This document shows positions 3,091-43,098 of a stretch of DNA of 43,098 nucleotides, piece after piece (position 1 is the stretch's first letter; every line of letters starts with the position of its first letter). Below the pieces are notes generated by a model. It was not told the origin of the DNA. It worked only from the letters and a program-made list of their open reading frames with translations, and searched no databases. The translations under genes were made by a program, and so were the position numbers. The DNA is from a virus (Duplodnaviria; Heunggongvirae; Uroviricota; Caudoviricetes), in the IMG/VR virus record IMGVR_UViG_2541047775_000007; one strand, 5' to 3'.

Positions 3091-3573
3091 CTATCTGGTC
3101 AGGGTGTCGTACTGTTTTTCACAGACTCTTCCGGCTTCGGCTGCCCGGTCAGCATACTCTGCCAGTTGTCTGTTTCTCTCGAGAGATTTACTGAGCACGT
3201 CGGCAAGCAAAACTCCGGTGTCTGCGGCTGACGTCCCAGCGCCGACAATGGCGTTATACTGCCTGAGCTGCTCACGGATGGCAACGAGCTGTTGCTGCAA
3301 CCGGCCAGCGCGAGCGGCAGCATCAAGAGCATCATTGCGCGCCTGGTCGATCCTCTGCTGCGCTTCACGTTCATTGATCGCTTTCTCCTGTTCGTAGTGC
3401 TGACGAATTCTCTCATCTTCGGTTTTGCGGTCTTCTTTCGCCTGCGCATACCCGGCGTCGTACTGACGACTGCCGTGTACACTCCAGGCAACAACTCCTG
3501 ATATGACCAGAACAGCAAGCACCGCCATGATAATCAACTGTTTCCGGTATGCTTTTACGAATGCCCAGATCAT
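3091..3573 (-). CDS. Rz-like i-spanin (160 aa)
   Basis: N-terminal TM helix, then charged coiled-coil; directly downstream of and overlapping the endolysin gene (ATGA overlap). Confidence 0.7.
3099..3335 (-). CDS. Rz1-like o-spanin lipoprotein embedded in the +1 frame of Rz
   Basis: Inside the 3099..3518 [16 protein letters not shown] gives a signal peptide with lipobox followed by a Pro-rich short mature peptide; fully embedded in Rz in a different frame. Confidence 0.5.
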   Translation of the reverse strand: MMLLMLPLALAGCSNSSLPSVSSSGSITPLSALGRQPQTPEFCLPTCSVNLSRETDNWQSMLTGQPKPEESVKNSTTP

Positions 3574-4199
3574 ACCGCCAGCACCTTACTGGCATTGATG
3601 TATCGCGCGCGCCGGTCGTCGATGCCGTTCCGGCCACCATTGATAATCAGAGTTACACGTGCAATATCGCCGGTATACTTCATGCATCCTTTGCTGGCAA
3701 AGAACCACGCCGCGCTACGAGCCGCGTATTCGTCCTGCGCCAGCAGTTCAGGACTCTCCAGCAGGTCAACCTTAAGACCGTTTCCACAGTCACGATAGTT
3801 ATTCAAACCGGTAACCTGGATAAGCCCGCGCCCACGGTAGTTCCAGCCATCACCAGGGGCATTGTTCCCCATGCGTTTGCTGTACACCAGATTGGCAATC
3901 GCTCTCTGGCGCTCAAGTGGCAATGGTGGTTCGCCTGCACGTCGCCCCAATGCGTTGGCCTGTCCCTGAGTGAGACGCCCAGCCCGAACAAAGTTAGCCA
4001 GTCCGCTGACGCTGTAGTTGAAATTCTCCTGCAACCGGGTGAAGCCTCCAGACTCATGCCCGACCTGAGCAATAAACATAGCCTGATCTTCTGGTTTGCT
4101 GATACCAAACTCTTTCATCGCAGAAGTTATATGCGAGAACCAGCGTGCGGCCAGTGCCTCGCTGATACCAGCAGCTCGCTGGAATTGTTTAATCTCCAT
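3570..4199 (-). CDS. endolysin, glycoside hydrolase family 19 (chitinase-like) type
   Basis: Motifs [20 protein letters not shown] are characteristic of GH19 phage endolysins; no N-terminal hydrophobic SAR segment. Confidence 0.88.
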
Positions 4200-4497
4200 G
4201 TTTAGACCTCGATACTTTGAAAATTTGAACGACGTTACCGCGCGTTTTAATAACCGCAGCTAGCATGACAGCGTTGATAATGACCTCAGATAAATCCACA
4301 GCCATTGGCGTACGTAACCAGATTGCATAGGCGACACGAACAGGAATACTGGCCGCAGCAACAATCAGGAAATAAGCAAGCCATCCTCCCCACCTTCGGT
4401 GTTGAGAGCCGTTACGCCGGAATGTGACAACGCGAATTGCTATGCCAGTGCAAATAACTGCATTGGTGATAAGCAAAAAAAACTCATGCGTTACCAT
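4189..4497 (-). CDS. holin-like membrane protein (3 predicted TM helices, charged C-terminus)
   Basis: Hydrophobic segments and C-terminal [19 protein letters not shown] tail; overlaps endolysin start. Confidence 0.5.
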
Positions 4498-5090: not shown

Positions 5091-5387
5091 TCAAATAGAG
5101 AAATAAACACAAAAACAAAAAACAACAGGAACAGCAAAATCCAACAGACTTCCCACATCCCACACGCGTGGATCAAAACCTCCCCACCACGGCATGTTGA
5201 TACGTTTCCCTTTCCCAAACTTTTCTATCCAGCGATATTCTGCCTGGGTGTGTTCACGCGCAATGAAGAACGTACAACCGGCTATCGCACCGTAAGCCCA
5301 GTTTCCGGTAAAAATACCAACCAGTACCTGAGCCACAAAAGCGCAAAGCGAGTGAAGAAATGGAGTGACATCAATGCTCTTAATCAT
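5091..5387 (-). CDS. small membrane protein (98 aa), translationally coupled to the tailspike gene
   Basis: Start codon overlaps tailspike stop (ATGA); 2-3 hydrophobic segments. Confidence 0.5.
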   Translation of the reverse strand: MIKSIDVTPFLHSLCAFVAQVLVGIFTGNWAYGAIAGCTFFIAREHTQAEYRWIEKFGKGKRINMPWWGGFDPRVWDVGSLLDFAVPVVFCFCVYFSI

Positions 5388-7573
5388 GAAACTTCCCCAT
5401 TGGTTGAAAATATGGCTCCTCCAACGCCAAGTGTATTTCGTGTTGTGCTCAACCTCAGAGGGCTGGAGTCAGAATTAGAATATCCTGTAGCAGAAATAAA
5501 AGATCCTCCACTAATAGTCAACTGCGGAACATCGGCTATATCTGAATAAGTTCTGTCAGCAACAGTATTATTTATAGCCACATATGATCCAAAAAAACTT
5601 CTTATTGTTTGGTTTTTAACTTTACTTCCTTCAATGGTTATCCTACTACCACAGTCGGCAATAAATCCTGAATCTGCATCCAGCGTTGCATTCATAAAAG
5701 AAGCTTCAGATCTCTCTACATCAATCCATCTAATATCTTTTGTGGGATTTGCACCAAATACATGACAAATATTAGAGTTAAACCTTACACCATCTTGGAG
5801 GTGCATTAATTTTTTTATATCTGTACCCCATAGCCTTGGAAAATTAACAGATGCTCCTGCATGGCAATCAAATCCCAGCTCAGCCCCTGAGATATCTACA
5901 GCCTTTCCTGAAATAACAGCACCAGTGTCTGCATTAACGGCTGTTCCACAATTGCGCATATCATTACCAGCAACATCAACGCAACCCGCACCATCAATAC
6001 GCACACCAAGTGCACATCCATAAAAACCTTTTTCAATATTTGGTTCAAGGACTTTACCACTTGTTTCTGCATCACTTTCTTCAACGTCATGTCGTCTTGC
6101 ATCAACATATGCTGTATGAATGCAGGTTAATCCACGATATGAGCAATGTATAGTTTTATGGTCGCGTATATTAACATTTGAACCATCTCTTACATTCCAT
6201 CCTATATAACAATAGCTTGCACTTGACCCCTGAAAATCTGCTTTAACATTATAAATACAATTAACTGACGCAACCGTACTCTCTGTGCACCGTTCAAACT
6301 TGCTTACAGGCATTGATGCCTTGACATTATTTACCAGTTGCAGGGAAGAGTATCTGCTATAAGAAAAATCACATACGTAATACCCTTCTGGCATATATGC
6401 AGCAACACTTTCCTCATCAGGAGCACATCCGGTATGATATGCACTAATTTTTGCACCAAAACTACCATGAATTCCAACGTAGAACTTTCGAGCACCTGAA
6501 TACGGATAGAAATTAAGTTCAGCTTTTTGAGTTACAATAAATGCACAAACATCGCTATCATCTCTATTTTCTTCGATCTGAATAGCAAATACAGGACTTT
6601 TTGCTGCATCGCAAATGTAAAATAAATACTTGTATTCGTAATACGTTCTAACGATTTTAGTAAACAAACGAGTGTCAGAGAAAACCACTGAGTCTTCTGA
6701 TGTTATTTTAATCCAAGACAAATCAACACCTGAACTGAATTCAATTTGATAGTTGATAATATGCCCGGTCTTAATTCTTATTTCGCAGAAAGCATTACCA
6801 CCATCCCACATAGGTCTCATTGACTGGGCTGCAATGATTGCATCTTTGAGTGTAGGGTAATCACCCCATTCGCCAACAGTAATAACAAAAGTATAATATG
6901 AGTTAAAAACAGCGGCATTTTTGCCTTTGGATATCAACTCCTTAATCATAAAAATATTATCTTCGTAATCACAAGGAGAAATTATATCCCTCATTTTGCT
7001 TTGAAATGTTCGTTGTCTTGCCCCGCTTCCTGACGGTATAAACCAACCAAAACCACCAACAACCCCGGCGATTGCAGCATCGACATAATTACGCATTGAG
7101 CGATTATTTACAGCATCCTGCTCAAGTGATGGATCTGCAAGGTTAGAAATTCTGTTTTGCTTTGCATCGTAATATTTTGCAAGCAGAGAGGGCTTCATCA
7201 ATGCACGTCTGAACCACCCAAAACATTGCTGGATCAGCATCGTCAGGTAGTCAAAGGCATCTTCATGCACTTCGGGGAAAAATTTTCCCTGATTGCGAAG
7301 GTCTGTCTCCTGCACTACATCAAGCACACGATCTATCGTAATTCGCCATCCAGTAGCAAGCGGAGACGGAAGAACCACAGAACCGCCACTATAAGTGCCC
7401 GCCCCAGTTACCGTATAACCGGTATCCAGGACCAATTCTGTTACGTTCCCGTTCAGGTCAGACACCTGAACAACCAGGTCTGATTTTCTGAAAATTCGAA
7501 AAGTATACGGAAACGATGTCGTAACGCCGTTACCGGTGTATTCGTTGTGGTCAACTTCGGTTGAGACCGTCAT
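5384..7573 (-). CDS. tailspike / tail fibre with conserved N-terminal virion-attachment domain and probable beta-helix receptor-binding/depolymerase body (729 aa)
   Basis: N-terminus MTVSTEVDHNEYTGNGVTTSFPYTFRIFRKSDLVV matches the conserved podovirus tail-fibre/tailspike N-domain motif; AT-rich body with many Cys and Asn/Gly repeats; RBS ggag before ATG. Confidence 0.8.
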   Translation of the reverse strand: MTVSTEVDHNEYTGNGVTTSFPYTFRIFRKSDLVVQVSDLNGNVTELVLDTGYTVTGAGTYSGGSVVLPSPLATGWRITIDRVLDVVQETDLRNQGKFFPEVHEDAFDYLTMLIQQCFGWFRRALMKPSLLAKYYDAKQNRISNLADPSLEQDAVNNRSMRNYVDAAIAGVVGGFGWFIPSGSGARQRTFQSKMRDIISPCDYEDNIFMIKELISKGKNAAVFNSYYTFVITVGEWGDYPTLKDAIIAAQSMRPMWDGGNAFCEIRIKTGHIINYQIEFSSGVDLSWIKITSEDSVVFSDTRLFTKIVRTYYEYKYLFYICDAAKSPVFAIQIEENRDDSDVCAFIVTQKAELNFYPYSGARKFYVGIHGSFGAKISAYHTGCAPDEESVAAYMPEGYYVCDFSYSRYSSLQLVNNVKASMPVSKFERCTESTVASVNCIYNVKADFQGSSASYCYIGWNVRDGSNVNIRDHKTIHCSYRGLTCIHTAYVDARRHDVEESDAETSGKVLEPNIEKGFYGCALGVRIDGAGCVDVAGNDMRNCGTAVNADTGAVISGKAVDISGAELGFDCHAGASVNFPRLWGTDIKKLMHLQDGVRFNSNICHVFGANPTKDIRWIDVERSEASFMNATLDADSGFIADCGSRITIEGSKVKNQTIRSFFGSYVAINNTVADRTYSDIADVPQLTISGGSFISATGYSNSDSSPLRLSTTRNTLGVGGAIFSTNGEVS

Positions 7574-8905: not shown

Positions 8906-8942
8906 ATTTACATTGCACTCCTCTTGTGCCATAGTAATCGGG

Positions 8943-9018
8943 CACTGGCAAAATCCAGTGCCGGGATTGGTCTCCCGGATTACTAAGTGGCGCATACCAC
9001 GCCAGACGTGGTTTTTTT
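8943..9018 (+). promoter_or_regulatory. structured leader: three consecutive hairpins ending in an intrinsic terminator (ccacg-ccaga-cgtgg plus T7)
   Basis: Hairpins cactgg/ccagtg (8943-8960), ccggga/tcccgg (8961-8978), and terminator 8996-9018; no credible ORF. Confidence 0.45.
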
Positions 9019-9176
9019 ATGCGTATAGCACAGTCATGCCAGAATTATGGTGGGCTGAATGGGGGTCCGAAAGGACGCCGGTACCACTTAGGCCGGTAAG
9101 ACCAACTCCGTTCAGTTCACCACCATCTGATTGGTCTCAGCGGTGGTGATGTAATTCGCTAAGTGGAGACGCCATC

Positions 9177-9833
9177 ATGAACGCTCAACTCATCCCCGTA
9201 TTCAACGGCACTATATCTAACGAAACAGCCCTACTTTGTAATGCCCGCGATCTGCACACTTTTTTAGGTGTTAAAAAGGTGTTTGCAGCATGGATTACAA
9301 ATCGCATATCAGAATACGAATTCATTGAAAATCAAGACTATATTTTGCTTTCCAATTTGGGAAAGCAAACATCTGGTAGAGGCGGCCACAACCGCAAAGA
9401 GTACCACCTCACCCTTGATACAGCCAAAGAGCTGGCGATGGTCGAGCGTAACGAAAAAGGTCGCCAGGTGCGACGCTACTTCATTGAATGCGAGAAACGT
9501 TTAAGACAACAAGAAACAAAAGTGGAGAAGGTCTTGTCAGGCTTCATGCCCGCCATTATGGAGGCGATCAAGCTGGAAGACAAAAAAGAATACAGCGCCC
9601 CACTGAAGCCCGGCTACCGCAGCCTGATTCATTCTCCGTCTGGTGTTCTCGGACTGACGGAGAACTCACTGCTGATGAATCTGCTGAACCAGTTACAGGA
9701 AGACGGGCACGACGTATCGGGCGCGGCGGCGGAGCTGACCACCATGTTCTGCTACATCGTCGGTGTGAGCAAATGCCTGCGTGATATCCAGACGCACGCG
9801 GAGTACATCAACGACAAGGCAGGGTTCTTCTGA
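9177..9833 (+). CDS. phage antirepressor, AntA/AntB-type N-terminal domain plus C-terminal domain shared with the 7769..8026 protein (218 aa)
   Basis: N-terminus MNAQLIPVFNG...KVFAAWITNRISEYEFIENQDYIL...RYFIECEKRL resembles AntA/AntB antirepressor family; intrinsic terminator at 9843-9865 follows. Confidence 0.7.
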   Translation: MNAQLIPVFNGTISNETALLCNARDLHTFLGVKKVFAAWITNRISEYEFIENQDYILLSNLGKQTSGRGGHNRKEYHLTLDTAKELAMVERNEKGRQVRRYFIECEKRLRQQETKVEKVLSGFMPAIMEAIKLEDKKEYSAPLKPGYRSLIHSPSGVLGLTENSLLMNLLNQLQEDGHDVSGAAAELTTMFCYIVGVSKCLRDIQTHAEYINDKAGFF

Positions 9834-11115: not shown

Positions 11116-11277
11116 ATGAAAAAAGCATTTGCTGCACTGTTCGTTTTGTTGTCTCTGGTAGCTTCAACTCAGGCCTTTGCCGGTCGTTGTCAGCACGACA
11201 GCGATACTGCCGCTGACGGCTCCCGCTGCGGTGGGCGTTCTGCGGATTCCCGCCCGGGTGGCGGTGGCATTCGTTAA
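11116..11277 (+). CDS. small secreted Gly/Cys-containing peptide (53 aa precursor, about 31 aa mature)
   Basis: MKKAFAALFVLLSLVASTQAFA signal peptide, then GRCQHDSDTAADGSRCGGRSADSRPGGGGIR; candidate promoter TTGACG-N17-ATAGAT upstream; weak RBS. Confidence 0.45.
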   Translation: MKKAFAALFVLLSLVASTQAFAGRCQHDSDTAADGSRCGGRSADSRPGGGGIR

Positions 11278-11299
11278 AAACAAGGCCGCGAAAGCGGCC
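11274..11299 (-). terminator. intrinsic terminator (aggccgc-gaaa-gcggcct) ending the minus-strand late operon
   Basis: 7-bp GC stem; T-run on the minus strand; separates convergent transcription units. Confidence 0.6.
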
Positions 11300-11300
11300 T

Positions 11301-11312
11301 GTGACATGTCAC
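11301..11312. other. perfect 12-bp palindrome GTGACATGTCAC (motif C copy 1)
   Basis: Overlaps the stop codon of 11309..11605 and abuts the terminator; same palindrome at 31123-31134 and near-identical at 28858-28869. Confidence 0.6.
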
Positions 11313-19602: not shown

Positions 19603-22073
19603 CAGAATCCCCCAACAGTAAGGCGAGGAATAACGGCAAGAACAGACAGCGGCAACGGGTCAAGCTGACGGATTTTTACACGCCCGTTTTTGCCCCAGTT
19701 ACTGTCCAGTTTCACTTCTACTTTTCCGGTAGCATCATCAACAGGATCATCGTAGAACTCGAATTCACGCTGTGGATATTCGTACCATTTACCGCCGGGC
19801 GTAGTCGCCCAGATGCCGCGACTGGCATTCACAACCAGAGTAACGGACGGGATCACCTGTTTTTTGTCCAGCAGCGTTTCCTGTCCGTTAATGTTGATAT
19901 CCAGTGTTTCGAATTCAGCAGTTATTGGCAGGCCGATGTGCACAACAGCCCCCGGTGATTCCAGCGTGACGGCACCTCCGGAAACCACTTTTTGTGGTTC
20001 CACGTTCGCATCAGAGAGGATGTTTACGGTCTGGCCTTCAAGATGAGACAAGCCGCCAAATGTCCGGCGCGCCATCTGCCAGTTCGTGGTGGCCACATTC
20101 CTGAGGGATGGCGGGACGTTCCTGTTAGCACGAACCACTACTGCGGTATTGCTGGTTACAGAAATAATGTCGCAACGTAATTCTTTTGACACTTCATCGC
20201 CAGTATCAGGATCAGCTCCGGTATAAGGGAACTGTAGTTGCGCACCAACATCACTACTGGTGAAGTACGCACCACCAGAAACACTGATTGTATATTCCGC
20301 GTGGTAATCCCATTCACCAGAACCACCAGTGATGGTCATCGTTCTGTCAGACGTATTTCTTCCATCATAGCTAAGGCCAGAATCAACAAAGAAAGCATCT
20401 TCATCGCTGGTAAATAAACGGCTGGACAGTCGCTCTATGTATCTCACTGTTTGCCCGTTAACGGTTCGGTTAACGACGAAATACACCGCATCTTCATTGC
20501 CTTCGCTGATACTGCATGTGCTTTCATATTTTCCGGTACTGGATTGTGGTGCCCATGCAAAAACCTGCTGATCACGCAAATAGGTCATCACCAGTAATTT
20601 ACCGTCATCACGAATGCAGAAGGCGCTGGAGTAAGGGACAATAGAGAAGCACCAGTCAACAATGCTGTGCTTCTGAAAAAGATGATTGGCAAGGATGGTC
20701 AGGTCGTTCCCCTGATAGCCGTCAACATCGAATGAGTAGGCCAGATCACGGACAACACTGCCTTTCTCCTGGACGAACAGAGCAATATTCGCCACGGCAA
20801 TTGGTGGGACGTTGCTTGAGCCATTTGATCCCTGAGAGCTGAATGCAAATGATGATGGGGTTAACACTTTGTTCTGGTCGCCGGTGATGACGTACTCACC
20901 TCCGGAAGTCAGCGCCACCAGCGAACCAACATCAATCAGGTGGCGGATCTCATTAACCTGACGCCCGGCATAGGTGTAGATAATTCTGTCGTCATCCTGC
21001 GTAGGATTGCTTTTGCCAAAATCCTTATAATCCCCGGTACGGCTGGCCCAGATAGTCTGAGGGAACGCAGTCGATGCGGCGAAGTAAAGACGTTGTTGAT
21101 AATAAACAACAGTGCCAGGATAACCATTAACACTGTTCCAGGCATATTTAGCCCATTTATAGCTGGCATTATCCTCGCCAACGACCTGCGAAGGGATATA
21201 GGAAATCACCTCGGCAGTTGCAGTAGTGCCGTTTACAGCAGTGATACGGGCAATGCCAAACCCACTGTGCAGATACTCCCACTCAATGCCAGTATCATCA
21301 TCACCGGATCCGCCCCAGCCATCCCATGATGTGCCTTCTGTATGCGAAGGGCGCAAAGTGCCTGTTTTGCCTGCTGTAACGGCGCGATAGTAATTACTGT
21401 CTGCACGGCGAATATCGCCAATCGACGTACTCTTACTGGTTTCCCATACCGGCACTGAATCCACTGCAGGCTGTTCCAGATAGAACAATTTGCCTACCTG
21501 CTCCGCGCCAAAAATAGAGGCGCTTGCCGTTAACGTAATTGTCCCGGTGCTGGCGCTGGCATAAACCGTCACTGACTCGTCAATATTGATATCTTCAAAT
21601 GGCCCGTTCTTCGTTACCACATCAACCAGTTGCCAGTTGTCATGCGCGTAGCGGCGCAACTCTTTCGGCGGGTATGCCGGGTGAACCAGCGTAAGCACGT
21701 CGGCGCTTTGCGTGAATTTAATTCGGAACAGATCGGCTTCAGTATATGGCGTGGCAATTTCATAAATAACATTGCTGCTGTTCAGCACCAACGCACCATC
21801 TTTGATAACGCGCATGTACTGGTGCCCGAACTCCAGAGCATAGGTCTGAACCGTCGAGAACTGGAACGGGATCAGGCGGCATTTCCGATTTGGGTATTTG
21901 GCGGCACCGACAAAACGCGTACCAGGTCGATTCTCAACGCCGCCATACTGCCGCACGATAAAGTTATCGCACTTGCGCAATGCCACCTGGTACTTCGCCA
22001 TGTCGATACGTCCGTACAACGACGGTCCAATCTCACCACCGGCAAAGCTGGGCTGGATCCAACTGATAGCCAT
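19602..22073 (-). CDS. tail tube/nozzle protein (823 aa), T7 gp12-like position
   Basis: Size and position after a 201-aa gene fit the tubular protein A/B pair of podoviruses; no motif-level confirmation. Confidence 0.45.
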   Translation of the reverse strand: MAISWIQPSFAGGEIGPSLYGRIDMAKYQVALRKCDNFIVRQYGGVENRPGTRFVGAAKYPNRKCRLIPFQFSTVQTYALEFGHQYMRVIKDGALVLNSSNVIYEIATPYTEADLFRIKFTQSADVLTLVHPAYPPKELRRYAHDNWQLVDVVTKNGPFEDINIDESVTVYASASTGTITLTASASIFGAEQVGKLFYLEQPAVDSVPVWETSKSTSIGDIRRADSNYYRAVTAGKTGTLRPSHTEGTSWDGWGGSGDDDTGIEWEYLHSGFGIARITAVNGTTATAEVISYIPSQVVGEDNASYKWAKYAWNSVNGYPGTVVYYQQRLYFAASTAFPQTIWASRTGDYKDFGKSNPTQDDDRIIYTYAGRQVNEIRHLIDVGSLVALTSGGEYVITGDQNKVLTPSSFAFSSQGSNGSSNVPPIAVANIALFVQEKGSVVRDLAYSFDVDGYQGNDLTILANHLFQKHSIVDWCFSIVPYSSAFCIRDDGKLLVMTYLRDQQVFAWAPQSSTGKYESTCSISEGNEDAVYFVVNRTVNGQTVRYIERLSSRLFTSDEDAFFVDSGLSYDGRNTSDRTMTITGGSGEWDYHAEYTISVSGGAYFTSSDVGAQLQFPYTGADPDTGDEVSKELRCDIISVTSNTAVVVRANRNVPPSLRNVATTNWQMARRTFGGLSHLEGQTVNILSDANVEPQKVVSGGAVTLESPGAVVHIGLPITAEFETLDININGQETLLDKKQVIPSVTLVVNASRGIWATTPGGKWYEYPQREFEFYDDPVDDATGKVEVKLDSNWGKNGRVKIRQLDPLPLSVLAVIPRLTVGGF

Positions 22074-27847: not shown

Positions 27848-27884
27848 TTGACATTTAACGCACAAATTATTACCTTTAAGGTAA
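27848..27884 (+). promoter_or_regulatory. promoter-like TTGACA (27848-27853) with operator TTACCTTTAAGGTAA (27870-27884)
   Basis: Consensus -35 hexamer followed by a motif A palindrome, pointing toward the tRNA island. Confidence 0.5.
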
Positions 27885-28206
27885 CCAAAGAGTTCATTCC
27901 GGTTACTAACCTGACTGGCTTGTCGTTAAATTGAACAGGTGGAGTGAGCTTTTATTTTGAGCAGTACGGCGTATGGCACATGCGCCGATAGCGGTCTGGA
28001 TACGTTTAAGGGGCACCCTCCCTTGCTCGGGCAAACGAACCAGGTAGCCGGAATGTGCAAGTCGAGCGGTTTTATTCCGCGCACGGGGATTCACCATCCC
28101 GGCGATTCGGTGTGACGCCTCGGAAGAGACGAGGGTACAACGATGAGAGCATTTATGGAGCCGCGACAAAGTGTGGCGCCTTAACAGGCTAAGTGCTCTC
28201 AGCGTT

Positions 28207-28283
28207 GTGGCATTAGCTCAGTTGGACAGAGCAACCGCCTTCTAAGCGGTTGGTCGCAGGTTCGAATCCTGCATGCCACGCCA
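28207..28283 (+). tRNA. tRNA-Arg (anticodon TCT), phage-encoded
   Basis: Manual cloverleaf: acceptor gtggcat/atgccac, D-arm gctc...gagc, anticodon stem accgc/gcggt with loop CTTCTAA, T-arm gcagg-ttcgaat-cctgc, discriminator G plus encoded CCA. Confidence 0.85.
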
Positions 28284-28326
28284 GAATCACGCCTAAGGAC
28301 CGTGATGCCAGAAGTTCCAGGGGCTT

Positions 28327-28369
28327 GGCGGTGATGGTTTCCCTTGAATGACTATCACCGCCCTTTTTA
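28327..28369 (+). terminator. intrinsic terminator after the tRNA (ggcggtgat...atcaccgcc plus T5)
   Basis: 9-bp stem with large loop followed by CTTTTT. Confidence 0.55.
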
Positions 28370-28446
28370 CAGCAGGACGCCATTGCGATGACTTCATGCT
28401 GTAAACCAGTACAGCCACGGAAGGCATAACTCATTGCTTCCAGTTC

Positions 28447-28470
28447 GCCCGGTTCGCCGGGCATTTTTTT
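28447..28470 (+). terminator. hairpin plus T7 immediately upstream of the 28482 RBS (attenuator-like)
   Basis: gcccgg-ttcg-ccgggc followed by TTTTTTT, 11 bp before aaggtgag RBS. Confidence 0.5.
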
Positions 28471-28481
28471 AAGGTGAGATT

Positions 28482-28853
28482 ATGAACGACCAGCAAATCG
28501 AAAAAGAAATCGTTGAGAAAGGCAAAACTGCTCCGCGCGTTACGCCAGACCATATCGAAAGCATTATTGCTCAGGAGGCATATTTCACAGCAGAGGATGG
28601 TGCCTTTGGCAAAGCCATAAAAGCGAAACATACTGGCGGAGAGGTAAACTACCAGCCGCACGAATCACTTTCTCTGCTGACGTTCTGCGTCCTGGTGCTG
28701 CGCAACGGCTTCACCGTCACCGGAGAGAGCGCCTGTGCAAGCCCGGAAAACTTTGATGCAGAAATTGGTCGGAAGATTGCCCGGCAGAATGCTGTAAACA
28801 AAATCTGGATGCTTGAAGGTTACTTGCTGAAGCAGAAGTTAAGCGAGCAATAA
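28482..28853 (+). CDS. conserved phage protein, possibly Gp49-like family (123 aa)
   Basis: RBS aaggtgag; motif LRNGFTVTGESACASPENFDAEIGRKIARQNA recalled as the N4 gp49 / Sf6 gp66-like family (from memory, not verified). Confidence 0.5.
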   Translation: MNDQQIEKEIVEKGKTAPRVTPDHIESIIAQEAYFTAEDGAFGKAIKAKHTGGEVNYQPHESLSLLTFCVLVLRNGFTVTGESACASPENFDAEIGRKIARQNAVNKIWMLEGYLLKQKLSEQ

Positions 28854-28857
28854 CACC

Positions 28858-28869
28858 GTGACATGTCAT
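28858..28869. other. palindrome GTGACATGTCAT (motif C copy 2)
   Basis: Sits between the stop of 28482..28853 and the terminator at 28874-28901. Confidence 0.55.
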
Positions 28870-28873
28870 AAAC

Positions 28874-28901
28874 AGCCAGCCTATGAGCTGGCTTTGTTTT
28901 A
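28874..28901 (+). terminator. rho-independent terminator (agccagc-ctatg-gctggct plus TTGTTTT)
   Basis: 7-bp stem and T-run; convergent with terL. Confidence 0.7.
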
Positions 28902-28943: not shown

Positions 28944-30419
28944 TTAAGCATAGGGATCGTAATCTGTAATGGCCTTGCCTTGCTGGTTCTGCTGCCCGGG
29001 AAGTCGCAGGCGCTTTGACACCGGGAAAGCAAACGTCAGCAGTAGCGCATCGCCTTTACCAGGAGAACGCCCAAGACGCTCTTTGATATCTTCCTTCGGT
29101 TCGATAACGATTTTACCGTCCACACGAACTTTGTACTCTGCCGCCGACAGGTCGTCTGCAGTTTCCTGGTCATCCAGCATGCCGCCCAGCCTCAGCCATG
29201 TCTTACATGAGTTGAACATCTCCCCACGCTTGTTAAGCATCTGCGGGTCAGTGGACGCACCGCCGAACGGAACAAGTTGCCATGTACGCCCCCAGCCATC
29301 ACCGATTGACTTCAAACCGGTTCCGTAACCGAAGTCGATGAACACCGCGTCAGCCTGATACTGGTCTTCAAAGTCAGCGATACGCTTCGCCATTATCAGA
29401 TCGTCAGTGGTCTTGTTGCCAGTCCACAGCACCTTACTGTGCAGCCCCTGCCGCAGGTATATCACAGCGTCATCAACTCCGGAGTATGCCGGGTCAACGC
29501 CGATTATCACCGGAGCATGTGCAACCTGCGCAGCGGTTACCACCCGTTTCATTGCCTCATCAGTAAGACCGGTAGGGATAAACTGCAATTCAGATGCATC
29601 AGGGAATATGCCGCGCACACGGATTTTAACGAAGTCGCTGTCTTCCCCGTAGTCATCAACCCATTTCTGCAACTGCTGTTTGTTAGTGCCTTCCACCGTC
29701 CGGCTGTCAATCTGCGCAGTTTTCCAGCGGTGTTTGTATTTGCGGAAACATTCGCGAAAACGCCCGGTGTTACGTGTAGGGTTTCCGAACGCCACCCAGA
29801 TAATCTCAGTGTCTTCGTCCGTTAGCGCACCCTCGGCAACTTCCCACACCAGATCCGCAATGTTCGACGCTTCATCGAATACCACGATGATGCGTTTGCG
29901 CTCGTTGTGTAGTCCGGCGAATGCCTCAGTGTTGTGCTCAGACCAGGGGATTGCGTCAGCTCGCCACCGTTTGTCGTGCCCAGGATCATTGCTGTACATC
30001 GCGGTAGCGGTACAGGTAAACCAGTCTTTCGTGATAGCAAGGTTCGACCACTTGATAATTTCCGGCCAGGTCTTCGTTCGTAGCTGGTTGTCGGTGTTGG
30101 CGGTCACCACGACCTTACAATCCTCGCAAGTGGACATGCCCCAGTTGATCAGCATTGAGATGAATGCGGATTTACCAATACCGTGACCAGAAGCGCGTGC
30201 CAGCATAAGCGGCTGATAGCGCGTCTCTGGATTCTGCAGGTGATCACGTATCTCTCTGAACGCATCGGCCTGCCACTGACGTGGACCGGTGGCATGTGCC
30301 AGTTCAGTACCCTCTTCCCCCCACGGGAACGCATAGAGGGCATAGCCAAGCGGATCGTGAGTGAACCCTGCAATATCCTCGATTAACTGCTCTTCAGGAG
30401 ATAACGCTGTATCTGTCAC
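28944..30419 (-). CDS. terminase large subunit (491 aa)
   Basis: Walker A-like GHGIGKS, acidic nuclease-domain residues, position after terS. Confidence 0.85.
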   Translation of the reverse strand: MTDTALSPEEQLIEDIAGFTHDPLGYALYAFPWGEEGTELAHATGPRQWQADAFREIRDHLQNPETRYQPLMLARASGHGIGKSAFISMLINWGMSTCEDCKVVVTANTDNQLRTKTWPEIIKWSNLAITKDWFTCTATAMYSNDPGHDKRWRADAIPWSEHNTEAFAGLHNERKRIIVVFDEASNIADLVWEVAEGALTDEDTEIIWVAFGNPTRNTGRFRECFRKYKHRWKTAQIDSRTVEGTNKQQLQKWVDDYGEDSDFVKIRVRGIFPDASELQFIPTGLTDEAMKRVVTAAQVAHAPVIIGVDPAYSGVDDAVIYLRQGLHSKVLWTGNKTTDDLIMAKRIADFEDQYQADAVFIDFGYGTGLKSIGDGWGRTWQLVPFGGASTDPQMLNKRGEMFNSCKTWLRLGGMLDDQETADDLSAAEYKVRVDGKIVIEPKEDIKERLGRSPGKGDALLLTFAFPVSKRLRLPGQQNQQGKAITDYDPYA

Positions 30420-31012
30420 TGATTGCCATCCTGACGTTCTTTCAGTCTCTTCCTGGCTGCCGCTATGCGATCAGCAATTGTCACATTCACATTAACATCC
30501 AGGCGTTCTTTGAACGCGTTGACGTCGACGTGCTTACCAATCAGTTCGAGGTTCTTCACCTTGTCAGGCCATTTAATTTTTTTGAGGATTGTCTCTATCG
30601 AATCCTCGTCCATGTTCATGATGGTAGATGACAGATCAAAGCCACTAAGCGTAGTGCGCCAGATTTTCGGCCACTCGCGGATTGGCTTAAGGCTTCCATC
30701 GTCGTTGAGGATATCAATCACGTCCATCTGGTCGATCTCCACCAGGCGCATGAGAACGTAATCAGCACTGACGCGCATTCGTTTGTTGCGCTCCTCCATC
30801 AACTCGGCAATCCGTTTTTGAATGCGTTCATCGCGCATCATGACACTGGCTTTAACTGCCGCTGTATTTGGGGAGAATCCTGCGTTAATCGCAGCCTGAC
30901 TCTGGTTTTCAGGCGTTTTGATGTATGACTGGCAATAAGCCTCCTGCATTGCTGTGAGCGGCTTAAATTGCGTTGATTTGCGTTTATAGGTTTTAGGTTC
31001 AGCAGGCATCAT
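30416..31012 (-). CDS. terminase small subunit (about 198 aa; ORF-track start at 31090 probably over-extended)
   Basis: Overlaps terL start; basic N-terminus MMPAEPKTYKRK; motifs recalled from small terminase families. Confidence 0.6.
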   Translation of the reverse strand: MMPAEPKTYKRKSTQFKPLTAMQEAYCQSYIKTPENQSQAAINAGFSPNTAAVKASVMMRDERIQKRIAELMEERNKRMRVSADYVLMRLVEIDQMDVIDILNDDGSLKPIREWPKIWRTTLSGFDLSSTIMNMDEDSIETILKKIKWPDKVKNLELIGKHVDVNAFKERLDVNVNVTIADRIAAARKRLKERQDGNQ

Positions 31013-31054
31013 AACCACCCTGGTAATTGTTACCGTCGTGGTAATAGTAACATG

Positions 31055-31081
31055 CAAAATAAAGCCGCCATAGTTGGCGGC
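31055..31081 (-). terminator. intrinsic terminator (gccgcc-atagtt-ggcggc, T-run on minus strand) upstream of the terminase/late operon
   Basis: 6-bp GC stem followed on the minus strand by ctttatttt; lies between the zinc-finger gene and terS. Confidence 0.5.
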
Positions 31082-31122
31082 AGTATTCAAAACCCATCAA
31101 ATTCATCATGCATAATCTACTC

Positions 31123-31134
31123 GTGACATGTCAC
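31123..31134. other. perfect palindrome GTGACATGTCAC (motif C copy 3)
   Basis: Overlaps the stop codon of 31131..31469, 38 bp upstream of the terminator. Confidence 0.6.
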
Positions 31135-31469
31135 ACTATTAATTTCGTTTCATGCCAGCCTTTAGTCACCCAGCATTGCGAGTCACCATTGCACGGGCAT
31201 GAATTAACTGGAACTCTCTCGCCGCACTTACCGCAACGTTTTCTGCTGATCGATTTTATACGCCCGCGCACGCGTGCATCATCCTGGCGGATCAGTAACG
31301 CTATATACTCACCAAATTCGTAAGGCGCACGCCCGGGGCGACGCGTGGCACAGTTACGCTCCAGCATTTCAATTTCCTGAGCATCAAGCACAATCTCCAG
31401 CTTACGTACACCGGATGCAGCTTGTCTGGCTCTCTGAGCGGCTTTGCGCTCTGCTGCTGATTTAGCCAT
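31131..31469 (-). CDS. zinc-finger protein (112 aa), candidate late-gene regulator/antiterminator
   Basis: C-terminal CGKCG...CPC...C cluster; basic N-terminus; last early gene before the terminator and terS. Confidence 0.45.
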   Translation of the reverse strand: MAKSAAERKAAQRARQAASGVRKLEIVLDAQEIEMLERNCATRRPGRAPYEFGEYIALLIRQDDARVRGRIKSISRKRCGKCGERVPVNSCPCNGDSQCWVTKGWHETKLIV

Positions 31470-34745: not shown

Positions 34746-34748
34746 GAT

Positions 34749-34825
34749 TTACCTCTAAGGTAATTAAAAACCACATAAGACACGAAATCAATAGAGTTTA
34801 GAATATTTTGTTACCCAACAGGTAA
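34749..34825. promoter_or_regulatory. two operator palindromes TTACCTCTAAGGTAA (34749-34763) and TTACCCAACAGGTAA (34811-34825)
   Basis: Motif A sites in the intergenic region between the P-like gene and the DUF1064 gene; first site overlaps the RBS. Confidence 0.55.
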
Positions 34826-34862
34826 TTGTCGAGGCGTAAAAAAATGCGCTATCGCGCTGGTA

Positions 34863-36475: not shown

Positions 36476-36676
36476 TCAGCCTGAGTGTTGTGGGGAGGAA
36501 TTAATCATGATCTGCTTAATCTCTGCCCTGATGCGACGGTTTGATTCCATGGTGCACTCAACACAGTGTCCGTTGTAAACCCAGCGTTCACTGTCATGTC
36601 CGTGCTTACATGTTTTTCCGGTGTAGTAGCGTTTAAGTCCGCGCTTTGCGGCATCAATACGTGTAATGATTTCCAT
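36476..36676 (-). CDS. small zinc-ribbon protein (66 aa)
   Basis: CKHGH...CVEC motif; ATG start preferred over the TTG-initiated 87-aa extension. Confidence 0.45.
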   Translation of the reverse strand: MEIITRIDAAKRGLKRYYTGKTCKHGHDSERWVYNGHCVECTMESNRRIRAEIKQIMINSSPQHSG

Positions 36677-36756
36677 GGTAAGCCCTGTTATTGGTATTGG
36701 GATTACGGTTATTTTGTGCTGACACAAAAAAAAGATCAACCATATTTGGTTTTTTA

Positions 36757-36826: not shown

Positions 36827-37057
36827 TCATGAGTAGAAGAAGTATGCCAGTTCTGCTTTTGAGCGCAGCCATTGTCTTGATTTACAGGCTTTAAAAAGCC
36901 CATTCATCAATACCTTACCTGGCATTTTGCGCTTACCTGTTAAGTGAGTCTGGATATAGTGACTCGTCGTTCCGGCTTCCTGTGCGAAGGCTTCACGCTC
37001 ATCCGGAGTAAGTGCAAGCCAGTGCTTTTTGAAATCGAAATGTCCGTTATCGCTCAT
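36827..37057 (-). CDS. Cro/YdaS-like small DNA-binding regulator (76 aa)
   Basis: Divergent from the repressor across an operator cluster; size and HTH-like segment. Confidence 0.55.
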   Translation of the reverse strand: MSDNGHFDFKKHWLALTPDEREAFAQEAGTTSHYIQTHLTGKRKMPGKVLMNGLFKACKSRQWLRSKAELAYFFYS

Positions 37058-37211: not shown

Positions 37212-37796
37212 ATGAAAAGTATCCAGGACGTCCGCAGGCAAAATCTCAACGACTTGATCGACCGTGAATTCAATGGTGTTCAGACGCGGATGGCTGAAAA
37301 ACTTGGAACTCAGGCAAATCTGGTAAACCGCTGGGCTCTTGGCAAGAAGGTTATCGGCGACCAGGTTGCGCGAAAAATTGAAGCTGCCGCCAATAAACCC
37401 CGTAACTGGCTTGATATCGATCGCTCGCTTTCTCAGGAAGGTTTTCAGCCTGTCGGACCAAGCGACATTGGTCAACTGGCGGCTCACAACCTGAAACGCT
37501 GGATGAGCGAAAGCCGCGACCTTTCAACGCAGGGAAAACTTCACCGCGCATCCGGCGTCGCCCAGGTAACAATCAGTCGCCTGTTAAACAATGAGGTCAG
37601 CGTTTCCATTTCCACCCTGGAGAATGTTGCATCCGCATTCGGGCGTCACGGCTATGAATTACTGATTCACCCGCACGACCCTGCGACCATCAACTATGAC
37701 CGCTCGCGCTACGCATTGTTACCCGAAACCGAGAAAGCAAAGATCGAAAGTTACATTGAATTTGTCATCAACCAGAACGAAAAAAACAAACAATAA
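37212..37796 (+). CDS. phage repressor with two tandem HTH (XRE-type) domains and no recognisable LexA-like autocleavage domain (194 aa)
   Basis: Two segments matching the Q..LA...G.....VSR HTH pattern; no S24 peptidase motif seen by eye; divergent from Cro-like gene. Confidence 0.65.
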   Translation: MKSIQDVRRQNLNDLIDREFNGVQTRMAEKLGTQANLVNRWALGKKVIGDQVARKIEAAANKPRNWLDIDRSLSQEGFQPVGPSDIGQLAAHNLKRWMSESRDLSTQGKLHRASGVAQVTISRLLNNEVSVSISTLENVASAFGRHGYELLIHPHDPATINYDRSRYALLPETEKAKIESYIEFVINQNEKNKQ

Positions 37797-41850: not shown

Positions 41851-43098
41851 TTATCCCGCCATCCACTTCTCAAACTTCGACGGGGAGAACGGAATCAGAT
41901 CCGTATGCTCCCCGTCAATCCAGGAATCAATCATATCGGCCCACTGCTGCAACATGTAGGCGCGCTGTCTGGCGTATTCCGCTTTGTTATATACGGCGCG
42001 CACACCTTTCTGCTCATGTGCCAGAGCCTTTTCAATCCAGTCTGAAGGATAACCAGCCTCATGCAACAACGTACTTGCTGTACGGCGCATATCGTGTACG
42101 GTGAAGCCCTGAATATGCTCACCATCTTCATTTATTATTTTCACCGTTCTGTCGATCAGAGAGTTCAGCGCGGCATTAGATAATGGCTTCCGGAAATTGT
42201 AACGACCAGGAACCAGATATTCACTTCCACCAGCGCACATCTGCAACCCGACCAATATATCCTGAGCCTGTTTAGGCAGGTAAATAACGTGCGCCCGGCT
42301 TCCCTTCATGCGGTCTGAAGGAATTGTCCATGTCCATTTTTTAAAATCTATTTCATCCCACGTTGCGTTGGTGAATTCGCCTTTACGAACCATAGTGATA
42401 AGCACCAGCTTTAAAGCCATTTTCATAGTGCCCATAGCACCAATGGCATCCAGCGTGCGGAAGAACAGGCCAATTTCTTCTGGTGTCAGTGTTCGCTCTC
42501 GTGGTTTAAATATGGCGATAGACGAAGGTTTAATGTCAGCCGCAGGATTAAACAAACCATGACCACGGTCATTGGCGTGACGGTATACGCTGCTGATGAT
42601 CTCCCTGGCCTGTACTGCTGTTGCCCGACCACCGCGTTCGACAATCCGGTCACACAAATCACGAACCATCGATGTGGTAATTTCAGCCATCATTTTGTTG
42701 CCAAGAACCGGAAGTATGTCACGGTCGATCACCGCCTGCTTCATTGCGCGGGTACTGTCAGCCAGGATGACGTGTTTCATATAACTGTCGGTATGTACCG
42801 CAAACGTCTCAGCACCACGAATCTTTTTGATACCGTCACGTTTAGCCGCAGCCGGTGACTGGCCTGCTTTAAGCAGCTTCTTTGCAGCAATCAGTTCTTC
42901 CCGCGCTTCTGCCAGGCTGATACCGTCACGCCCATACTGCCCGATTACCAGTGTTTCGCGGCGACCGTTGATACGGTAGTCATAGCGAAACGAGACCGTG
43001 CCTGACGTAAGCACAGCTACATACAGCCCGTCACGATCGGAGACCTTGTACAGTTTGTCCTGCGGCTTGAGGTTTTTTAATTTTGTATCGGTAAGCAC
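41851..43098 (-). CDS. int: tyrosine integrase, P4-type (N-terminus at or 1-2 codons beyond window end)
   Basis: N-terminal LTDTKLKNLKP...LYVAV arm-binding pattern and C-terminal catalytic region with R...H..R...Y spacing typical of P4-like integrases. Confidence 0.85.
   Translation of the reverse strand: MLTDTKLKNLKPQDKLYKVSDRDGLYVAVLTSGTVSFRYDYRINGRRETLVIGQYGRDGISLAEAREELIAAKKLLKAGQSPAAAKRDGIKKIRGAETFAVHTDSYMKHVILADSTRAMKQAVIDRDILPVLGNKMMAEITTSMVRDLCDRIVERGGRATAVQAREIISSVYRHANDRGHGLFNPAADIKPSSIAIFKPRERTLTPEEIGLFFRTLDAIGAMGTMKMALKLVLITMVRKGEFTNATWDEIDFKKWTWTIPSDRMKGSRAHVIYLPKQAQDILVGLQMCAGGSEYLVPGRYNFRKPLSNAALNSLIDRTVKIINEDGEHIQGFTVHDMRRTASTLLHEAGYPSDWIEKALAHEQKGVRAVYNKAEYARQRAYMLQQWADMIDSWIDGEHTDLIPFSPSKFEKWMAG

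Follow-up and report, generated by a model that had tools for sequence, protein, structure and literature searches.

How do the epsilon15/phiV10-like phages (Uetakevirus), some of which are serotype-converting prophages of Salmonella and E. coli O157, switch on their late genes? The question is raised by IMG/VR record IMGVR_UViG_2541047775_000007, a stretch of 43,098 nucleotides (hereafter the window), which is identified by its sequence as an epsilon15/phiV10-like prophage; the closest records, HEMP4, vB_EcoP_ZX5, TL-2011b, and phiV10, show 96-98% DNA identity over the region. A sequence-only reading had proposed that the last early gene, lying directly upstream of the terminase genes, encodes a zinc-finger protein serving as a late-gene antiterminator or activator. 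It was found that this gene, which encodes a protein of 112 amino acids (aa), is accompanied by a 12-bp palindrome, GTGAC-N2-GTCAC, and that the palindrome recurs with the gene family in unrelated phages. The main new result is the palindrome as the inferred partner of the gene family. It was found in no paper of the literature searched, and the protein-site module appears to be undescribed in the searchable literature. The pair is a candidate for the missing late-gene switch of the epsilon15/phiV10-like phages.

The 112-aa protein and the palindrome at the end of its gene

The end of the early-right operon and the start of the late genes are occupied by the following elements.

31131..31469, minus strand: gene of the 112-aa protein, a predicted ribbon-helix-helix (RHH) and Cys4 zinc-knuckle protein (epsilon15 gp49 / phiV10 p55 / N15 gp46 family, PHROG 536)
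31123..31134, no strand assigned: site A, perfect 12-bp palindrome GTGACATGTCAC, overlapping the TGA stop codon of the 112-aa gene
31056..31081, minus strand: intrinsic terminator ending the early-right operon (GCCGCCAACTATGGCGGC followed by TTTATTTT)
31044..31052, minus strand: P_terS, predicted extended -10 promoter TGT-TACTAT
31029..31045, no strand assigned: operator O1, ATTACCACGACGGTAAC, whose epsilon15 equivalent is annotated 'protein_bind: repressor'
31011..31027, no strand assigned: operator O2, ATTACCAGGGTGGTTAT (one mismatch), overlapping the terS Shine-Dalgarno sequence and first ATG
30416..31012, minus strand: terS, the terminase small subunit gene and first late gene (Pfam Terminase_2, E value 3.3e-29; PHROG 51), with start codon options at 31012 and 31009

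The 112-aa gene closes the early-right operon and shares its first 8 nt with the NinX-like gene. The basic N-terminus (MAKSAAERKAAQRARQ) and the cysteine cluster (residues 79, 82, 91, 93, and 99) noticed in the sequence-only reading were confirmed, as was the palindrome after the gene. In all Uetakeviruses examined, the early genes end with the homologue, ahead of terS. Site A is also kept in every Uetakevirus, even where the last codons of the gene differ.

Is the palindrome more than a chance sequence? The window contains two exact copies of GTGAC-NN-GTCAC, where 0.04 are expected by chance. In unrelated phages, the palindrome lies at, or up to about 230 nt 3′ of, the stop codon of the family gene, and it lies on the stop codon or within about 15 nt of it in the Uetakeviruses, ZF40, N15, phiKO2, and three Vibrio-type contigs (L156, L160, and L162). 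In ZF40, an unrelated myophage with a 67%-identical homologue, it is found 2 nt past the stop codon. In N15, it overlaps the TGA of gene 46 (35% identical), and all 49 of 49 N15-like loci have the palindrome at -3 of the stop codon. Each genome carries 2-4 copies with a spacer of always 2 nt; exact copies are located at 2142, 19517, and 39612 in epsilon15, at 5125, 7622, and 14944 in ZF40, at 28550, 33237, and 39269 in N15, and at 21342, 33227, and 35942 in the Vibrio contig K233, with two more in TL-2011b, four in BUCT554, and three in phiKO2. Across 131 loci (1.3 Mb), there are 235 copies with the 2-nt spacer, compared with 0-3 for spacers of 0, 1, or 3-6 nt or for swapped arms. In an unbiased count of 5+N+5 palindromes, GTGAC-N2-GTCAC is among the top recurrent ones, with three copies each in K233, ZF40, N15, and epsilon15. 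Higher counts were reached only by the SopB centromere in N15 and by the repressor operator in epsilon15. Other palindromes also reach three copies in K233 and ZF40, those of ZF40 being register-shifted readings of the same sites.

The Aeromonas phage 85AhydR10PP (L150) has three identical copies of an asymmetric variant, GTGACCGGACAC, at 19904, 44302, and 46954. With respect to the gene that follows, all three point the same way and lie 0-2 nt 5′ of its Shine-Dalgarno sequence; one of them precedes the RHH gene itself. A wider locus search seeded with the Aeromonas protein found no loci.

Since the site co-occurs with the gene family, GTGAC-N2-GTCAC is in all likelihood the cognate site of the 112-aa protein, an RHH/zinc DNA-binding protein by prediction. 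The preferred explanation of the distribution is that gene and palindrome travel between phages as one putative module. Other identities of the palindrome were considered and rejected. The spacing would be wrong for a CRP site, the -10 elements expected of a generic promoter are not conserved at the other copies, and a 2-nt loop is not feasible for an RNA hairpin or a nut-like element. The asymmetric centre of the N15 copies keeps its genomic rather than its transcriptional orientation, which favours recognition of duplex DNA. The SopB centromere of N15 and phiKO2 is a different sequence, GTGCGACCACGGTCGCAC. One N15 copy (L095, region 28490-28561, minus strand) lies 24 bp 5′ of a promoter, TTGACG-18-TAGAGT, with a terminator at 28413-28435. 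Presumably, promoter and terminator are Pa and Ta of the anti-repressor (immA) operon.

What kind of protein would bind such a site? PHROG 536 is labelled "transcriptional regulator". Matches of the family to RHH entries in Pfam and NCBIfam are weak, no significant Pfam, NCBIfam, or PDB family match was found for the protein, and a Foldseek search of its model against PDB gave nothing significant. The family is small, with 154 clusters at 50% identity among 1.84 billion representatives, and its phage records come from Escherichia, Salmonella, Klebsiella, Yersinia, Pectobacterium, Vibrio, and Aeromonas only. In an alignment of 58 members, R8 and R13 of the basic N-terminal helix are nearly invariant, C79 and C82 are invariant, and C99 is nearly invariant. 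The cysteines form the motif C-x-K-C-G-x-x-L-P-x-G-C-...-G-D-x-x-C-W, with the spacing CxxC-N8/10-C-N5/7-C. The AlphaFold2 monomer model (mean confidence score pLDDT 91.3) consists of a helix (5-19), an extended segment (20-29), two helices (30-42 and 52-75), the knuckle (76-99), and a last helix (100-108), and the strand, helix, helix order of the RHH fold is found in it. The preferred interpretation of the model is a dimeric, RHH-type DNA binder with a C-terminal Cys4 zinc knuckle. The "zinc-finger" description is corrected in that the predicted DNA-binding part is RHH and the cysteines form a C-terminal knuckle, and the protein falls into no known family of zinc-finger activators.

The protein resembles the Arc/Mnt/CopG repressors in fold class, small size, basic N-terminal arm, and palindromic operators, but it has an additional C-terminal knuckle and helix, and its family sites lie at the 3′ ends of genes before terminators, not over promoters. 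The family profile has marginal matches to zinc-finger proteins in PDB (TraR, E value 0.02; YbiI, E value 0.03), which are taken as a hint only; PF01258 (DksA/TraR) is not among the best 25 of the 49 Pfam families listed for the 58 members. As in the DksA/TraR C4 zinc fingers (CxxC-N17-CxxC), a long helix is followed by a CxxCG..(I/L)P..C zinc motif. However, single cysteines stand in place of the second CxxC, the aligned helix belongs to the RHH core, and an acidic tip is lacking. By fold or sequence, the protein is not a member of the Q families (Phage_antiter_Q, Q82/Q21), and it has no Ogr/Delta or RinA match in Pfam, NCBIfam, or PHROG. By these comparisons, it falls outside the known families of antiterminators and late activators.

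The half-sites are identical to those of matS (GTGAC-RNY-GTCAC; PMC6907758), whose binder MatP is also an RHH protein. Could the 112-aa protein be an accessory or architectural regulator apart from late timing, such as a repressor of the next gene or a MatP-like factor bridging the 2-4 sites per genome? The dispersal of the sites fits this, and some of them are intragenic (gp08 and gp12 of ZF40, repA of N15). In addition, N15, the Aeromonas phage, K233, and E. coli variants each have a site immediately next to the Shine-Dalgarno sequence of the following gene, and the family is also present in P2-like and Mu-like phages with other late activators. However, matS is 13 bp long with a 3-nt spacer, and sites with a 3-nt spacer were found neither in the window (with up to one mismatch) nor in the 1.3 Mb of loci. 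The 112-aa protein has the zinc knuckle instead of the four-helix bundle or coiled coil of MatP. Homology to MatP was rejected, since the hhalign probability is 1%, MatP is not among the PDB profile matches, and PF06303 and PF17414 are not matched; a MatP-seeded homologue search returned only near-identical E. coli sequences. Such a role would also leave unexplained the strong adjacency to terminators in the Uetakeviruses (see below) and the recurrent position as last early gene. I consider it fairly unlikely.

Terminators beside the sites and a probable promoter beyond the terminator

The intrinsic terminator that had been noticed before the terminase genes was confirmed. Its stem-loop (31064-31081; 7-bp stem with 6 GC pairs, 4-nt loop; -16.2 kcal/mol) is followed by the T-tract TTTATTTT (31056-31063), as is characteristic of rho-independent terminators, and the equivalent terminator is already annotated as rho-independent in the epsilon15 and phiV10 GenBank records. 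Site A lies 39 nt ahead of it. The order along the transcript is 112-aa gene, site A, terminator, repeat, and terS; the sequence-only reading had all of these elements, but it placed the repeat before the terminator, and the repeat lies 3′ of it. Two more sites in the window have a similar setting.

28858 (start), plus strand: site B, GTGACATGTCAT, one mismatch (perfect in relatives), between the 123-aa moron gene and the end of terL
28874-28893, plus strand: site B terminator, starting 4 nt past site B and ending the moron unit that converges on terL
11301-11312, minus strand: site C, GTGACATGTCAC, overlapping the TGA stop codon of an open reading frame (ORF) for a 98-aa membrane protein
11270..11312, minus strand: site C together with the terminator ending the long late operon; the stem lies 0 nt from the site according to the terminator finder and is separated by one base when the sequence is read

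Thus, all three sites of the window (3/3) lie between a stop codon and an intrinsic terminator. Site B and its terminator are conserved in epsilon15 (2142) and BUCT554 (5660), and equivalents of site C and its terminator are found in epsilon15 (19517), TL-2011b (32282), and BUCT554 (27924). The positions of sites A, B, and C are kept even in BUCT554, the most divergent member. In four Uetakeviruses, a terminator starts 0-39 nt 3′ of the site in 8 of 12 sites, against a background of 2-3%.

This arrangement is compatible with the following scheme. The 112-aa protein would be made last in the early-right operon and would bind the palindrome at the stop codon of its own gene. Bound at site A, it might allow RNA polymerase coming from the early operon to pass the terminator into terS-terL. 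Such read-through would add to transcription from the repressor-controlled P_terS located 3′ of the terminator. The mechanism would follow a Q-like logic with an unrelated fold. Whether the protein is linked to the early-to-late transition at all is, in my estimate, evenly balanced. What I tentatively favour, at a probability somewhat below even, is that the protein acts as a positive late regulator at the adjacent terminator, with read-through as the simplest form of this action.

What does the promoter beyond the terminator tell us? The direct repeat ggtaattgttacc / ggtaatagtaac that had been reported is real, and it is better read as two tandem copies of a 17-bp inverted-repeat operator, ATTACC-N5-GGTAA(T/C), putative sites of the prophage repressor (O1 and O2). 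ATTACC-N5-GGTAA with up to two mismatches has 40 matches in the window against 7.1 +/- 3.0 expected. About 14 operator sites were recognized (7677, 8797, 8890, 9906, 27869, 31011, 31029, 34748, 34810, 36756, 37093, 37141, 37853, and 37915). Pairs of them flank the helix-turn-helix (HTH) repressor gene (37093, 37141 / 37853, 37915), the product of which is presumed to bind O1 and O2. As expected of an operator, the 17-bp palindrome is common to the flanks of the repressor gene and overlaps promoters. The epsilon15 GenBank record labels the equivalents, including the site before terS, as repressor-binding. The operators are spread over the whole prophage, 5′ of early, late, and moron units and beyond the immunity region, which recalls multi-site repressor control. 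In the PL-like (TTGACA-17-AATTAT/TACC) and internal (TTGATT-17-TTTAAT/TACC) promoters, the -10 hexamer abuts the operator arm (at the slash). The internal early-right promoter (34748-34830, minus strand) sits between two operators just 5′ of the RusA-like resolvase gene, whose Shine-Dalgarno sequence is inside an operator.

P_terS shares the '-10 hexamer + TACC' layout of the PL-like and internal early promoters. It has no -35 element, the position of which is taken by the terminator stem. In epsilon15, PAT1, TL-2011b, the Klebsiella phage, BUCT554, and all variants among 80 IMG/VR loci, TG-N-TA(C/T/G)TAT is kept. No variation was seen in the TG or in hexamer positions 1, 2, and 4-6, and the N after the TG and the third hexamer position vary freely, as expected of a real extended -10 promoter. 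Very probably, therefore, the late operon has its own repressor-controlled promoter 3′ of the terminator.

This promoter is the first of several points that weigh against read-through. With P_terS and two operators downstream of the terminator, terS could probably be transcribed without antitermination, and read-through would be dispensable. RHH proteins are mostly repressors. Read-through at sites B and C would enter genes on the opposite strand in the window, for which a boundary or roadblock role is a better fit. No adjacency of site and terminator was found in ZF40, and only a loose one (112-134 nt) in N15 and K233. Some sites of N15, phiKO2, ZF40, and L152 lie inside coding regions without a nearby terminator. 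Between the 112-aa gene and terS, no terminator was found in BUCT554 (scanned) or in Klebsiella ST11-OXA245phi3.2 (read by eye). BUCT554 and a Klebsiella relative have an umuD-like gene with a LexA box between the homologue and terS. In 23 of 80 near-identical relatives (e.g., L022 and L026-L029), an intact 70-codon gene (MPKIRYDLEDM...) is located between site A and the terminator and starts 2 nt past site A. A relic of this gene remains in the window.

31087..31107, minus strand: 3′-end relic of the 70-codon gene (...DEFDGL*), its last 21 bases

The junction of the 70-codon gene coincides exactly with the palindrome, which therefore marks a mosaic boundary. The umuD-like gene of the Klebsiella/Enterobacter relatives (L009, 2783-3245; L010/L151, 7800-8270) has a TTGACT promoter with a perfect LexA box, TACTGT-N8-ACAGTA, and no terminator.

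Would the protein then block rather than permit transcription? It might bind the palindrome at the 3′ ends of transcription units and reinforce termination or insulate the units, separating early from late genes, the moron unit from antisense terL transcription, and the late operon from the immI/moron region, with the late genes relying entirely on repressor-controlled promoters of their own. All three sites of the window close transcription units and directly precede terminators, polymerase passing B or C would yield unproductive or antisense transcripts, P_terS lies 3′ of the terminator, repression is typical of RHH proteins, and the presence of Q in N15 and ZF40 would cause no difficulty. 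On the other hand, a roadblock would be redundant 5′ of an intrinsic terminator, and at site A it would stall polymerase inside the 3′ end of the protein's own gene. It would silence the 70-codon gene in those 23 relatives. Expression of the gene only at the end of the early operon is not readily accounted for, and the Q-like position and cassette in the Vibrio-type phages would be unexplained. I regard a boundary factor of this kind as unlikely.

The lack of a -35 element in P_terS suggests another possibility, namely, that the protein at site A recruits RNA polymerase to the promoter, as a RinA- or Ogr-like late-promoter activator. P_terS is an extended -10 promoter, the gene lies directly 5′ of terS like rinA in staphylococcal phages (PMC3152322), and the centre of site A is at about -91.5 from the predicted start. 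However, the distance is not conserved, being about -73.5 in epsilon15 and, in relatives, about 210 bp longer with the 70-aa gene or about 400 bp longer with the umuD-like gene, and the terminator hairpin lies between site A and the promoter. A class I activator geometry was rejected because of these varying distances. Recruitment at P_terS seems improbable.

Vibrio-type cassettes and known late switches

In the window, a comparison of 15 early-region ORFs with PHROGs yielded no Q- or N-like protein, the early-left exo/RecT genes and short ORFs being judged from the TL-2011b annotation only. Is a Q-like arrangement seen elsewhere in the family? Homologues with 28-38% identity are carried by five Vibrio-type siphophage contigs in which no Q is annotated or called (K233, L155, L156, L160, and L162). 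In these contigs, at most one gene separates the homologue from a region of 230-280 bp, in which the palindrome, a strong promoter, a conserved initial-transcribed motif, and one or two strong terminators are followed by the lysis/late genes. The arrangement of promoter, terminator, and lysis/late genes resembles that of lambda PR′-tR′. These genes include a holin identified by Pfam in L155, L156, and L162. The L156 promoter, TTGACA-17-TATCTT, is a 10/12 match where 0.1 are expected. In three of the five contigs, the leader motif CAACGTGGTG lies exactly 36 nt past the -35 element; it is absent from the window. I take this motif to resemble the sigma-dependent pause element of lambda PR′. The late-promoter regions are at 7600-7660 in L155, 7450-7500 in L156, 6467-6520 in L160, 6460-6520 in L162, and 33300-33400 in L098.

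Not everything in these contigs agrees with read-through controlled from the palindrome. The palindrome is 51-103 bp 5′ of the -35 element, and ACCACRAAA direct repeats lie nearer the promoter; the repeats, ACCAC(A/G)AAA, are found just 5′ of the -35 element and might be recognized by a different factor or represent another site type. The variable distance is also a further difficulty for recruitment of RNA polymerase to a promoter. In N15, phiKO2, ZF40, and L152, the homologue coexists with a Q-like gene and does not adjoin the late genes. The occurrence of the family in P2-like and Mu-like phages points in the same direction.

How far does the resemblance to the lambdoid Q proteins (Q-lambda, Q21, and Q82) go? 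In both cases, the gene directly precedes the late genes at the end of the early operon, with a DNA site beside it and a terminator ahead of the first late gene. A DNA-binding module combined with a zinc ribbon is also seen in Q-lambda, and the structures of Q-lambda and Q21 are themselves unrelated (PMC9388147). In a Q-dependent cassette, the promoter is accompanied by a Q-binding element and a sigma-dependent pause element, and a terminator and the late genes follow (PMC9388147). The full layout, from gene through promoter, initial-transcribed element, and terminator to the lysis/late genes, is present in the Vibrio-type relatives. In the window, by contrast, the segment between gene and terminator has only a 9/12 promoter match, which overlaps site A. 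Nor is there any relation of sequence or fold, the 112-aa protein being RHH and Q being HTH. Furthermore, the site is a perfect palindrome with 2-4 copies per genome, and homologues are found alongside real Q genes in N15 and ZF40.

A comparison can also be made with the RinA/LtrC-type proteins of Gram-positive phages, small regulators encoded directly 5′ of terS and controlling the packaging/late operon (PMC3152322). The 112-aa gene likewise encodes a small regulator directly 5′ of terS. The sequences are unrelated, however, the site is parted from the terS promoter by the terminator and variable inserts, and activation is here only a candidate role. The vB_EcoP_ZX5 paper contains nothing on late control.

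Overall, the antitermination interpretation of the sequence-only reading is partly supported. The position as last early gene before terS, the lack of a recognizable Q or N, and the Vibrio-type cassettes speak for it; the lack of membership in the Q, Ogr/Delta, and RinA families, the probable bypass of the terminator by P_terS, and the coexistence with Q in N15, phiKO2, ZF40, and L152 do not. It is also conceivable, if rather doubtful, that the RHH-zinc-knuckle proteins of PHROG 536 constitute a further, structurally unrelated class of DNA-site-dependent antitermination factors analogous to Q, serving as the late switch of epsilon15-like podophages and of Q-less Vibrio/Aeromonas siphophages. 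What had been a vague "zinc-finger" gene is now a defined pair, a small RHH-zinc protein and a 12-bp site, conserved together in phages as different as E. coli podophages, Vibrio siphophages, and N15. Control of read-through by the pair would mean that Q-like regulation had been invented independently once more. A role in marking operon boundaries or in bridging DNA would make the pair a new kind of phage genome-organizing element with matS-like half-sites. Under either role, the site can be used to annotate the module in prophages.

Other features of the window

Further landmarks of the window are as follows.

41851-43098: integrase gene
37212-37796, plus strand: HTH prophage repressor gene, facing the Cro-like gene
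36827-37057, minus strand: Cro-like gene
28944-30419: terL, next after terS (PHROG 2)
5384-7573: tailspike gene
3091-4497: lysis cassette

The early-right operon, all on the minus strand, contains O/P-like replication, RusA-like resolvase, DUF551, and NinX-like genes, and it is followed by terS, terL, and the portal, capsid, and tail genes. The lysis cassette at 3091-4497 is far from the early region, as had been stated in the sequence-only reading. The window begins with an ATG at position 1 and ends with the integrase start codon at 43098. Thus, it was cut at gene boundaries, not at attachment (att) sites.

The moron unit (27850-28900, plus strand) is antisense, between terL and the portal gene, and its promoter, TTGACA-17-TACCTT, overlaps an operator. 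It contains a tRNA-Arg(TCT) gene (28207-28283), a terminator (28447-28462), and the 123-aa gene (28482-28853, plus strand), which belongs to the N4 gp49/Sf6 gp66 family. Rfam matches to the isrK small RNA (sRNA) and the C4 antisense RNA (8942-9018 and 9043-9127) lie directly 5′ of the gene for the anti-repressor Ant (9177-9833); as judged from these matches and the Ant gene, this is an immI module of the P1/P7/N15 type. Near the lysis end of the window, there is a match to the Hfq-binding sRNA STnc490 (2778-2901). In the cII position, an 87-aa protein (36476-36739, minus strand; PHROG 1081) has the motif C-x-H-G-H ... C-x-x-C and is a putative second small zinc protein of the early operon.

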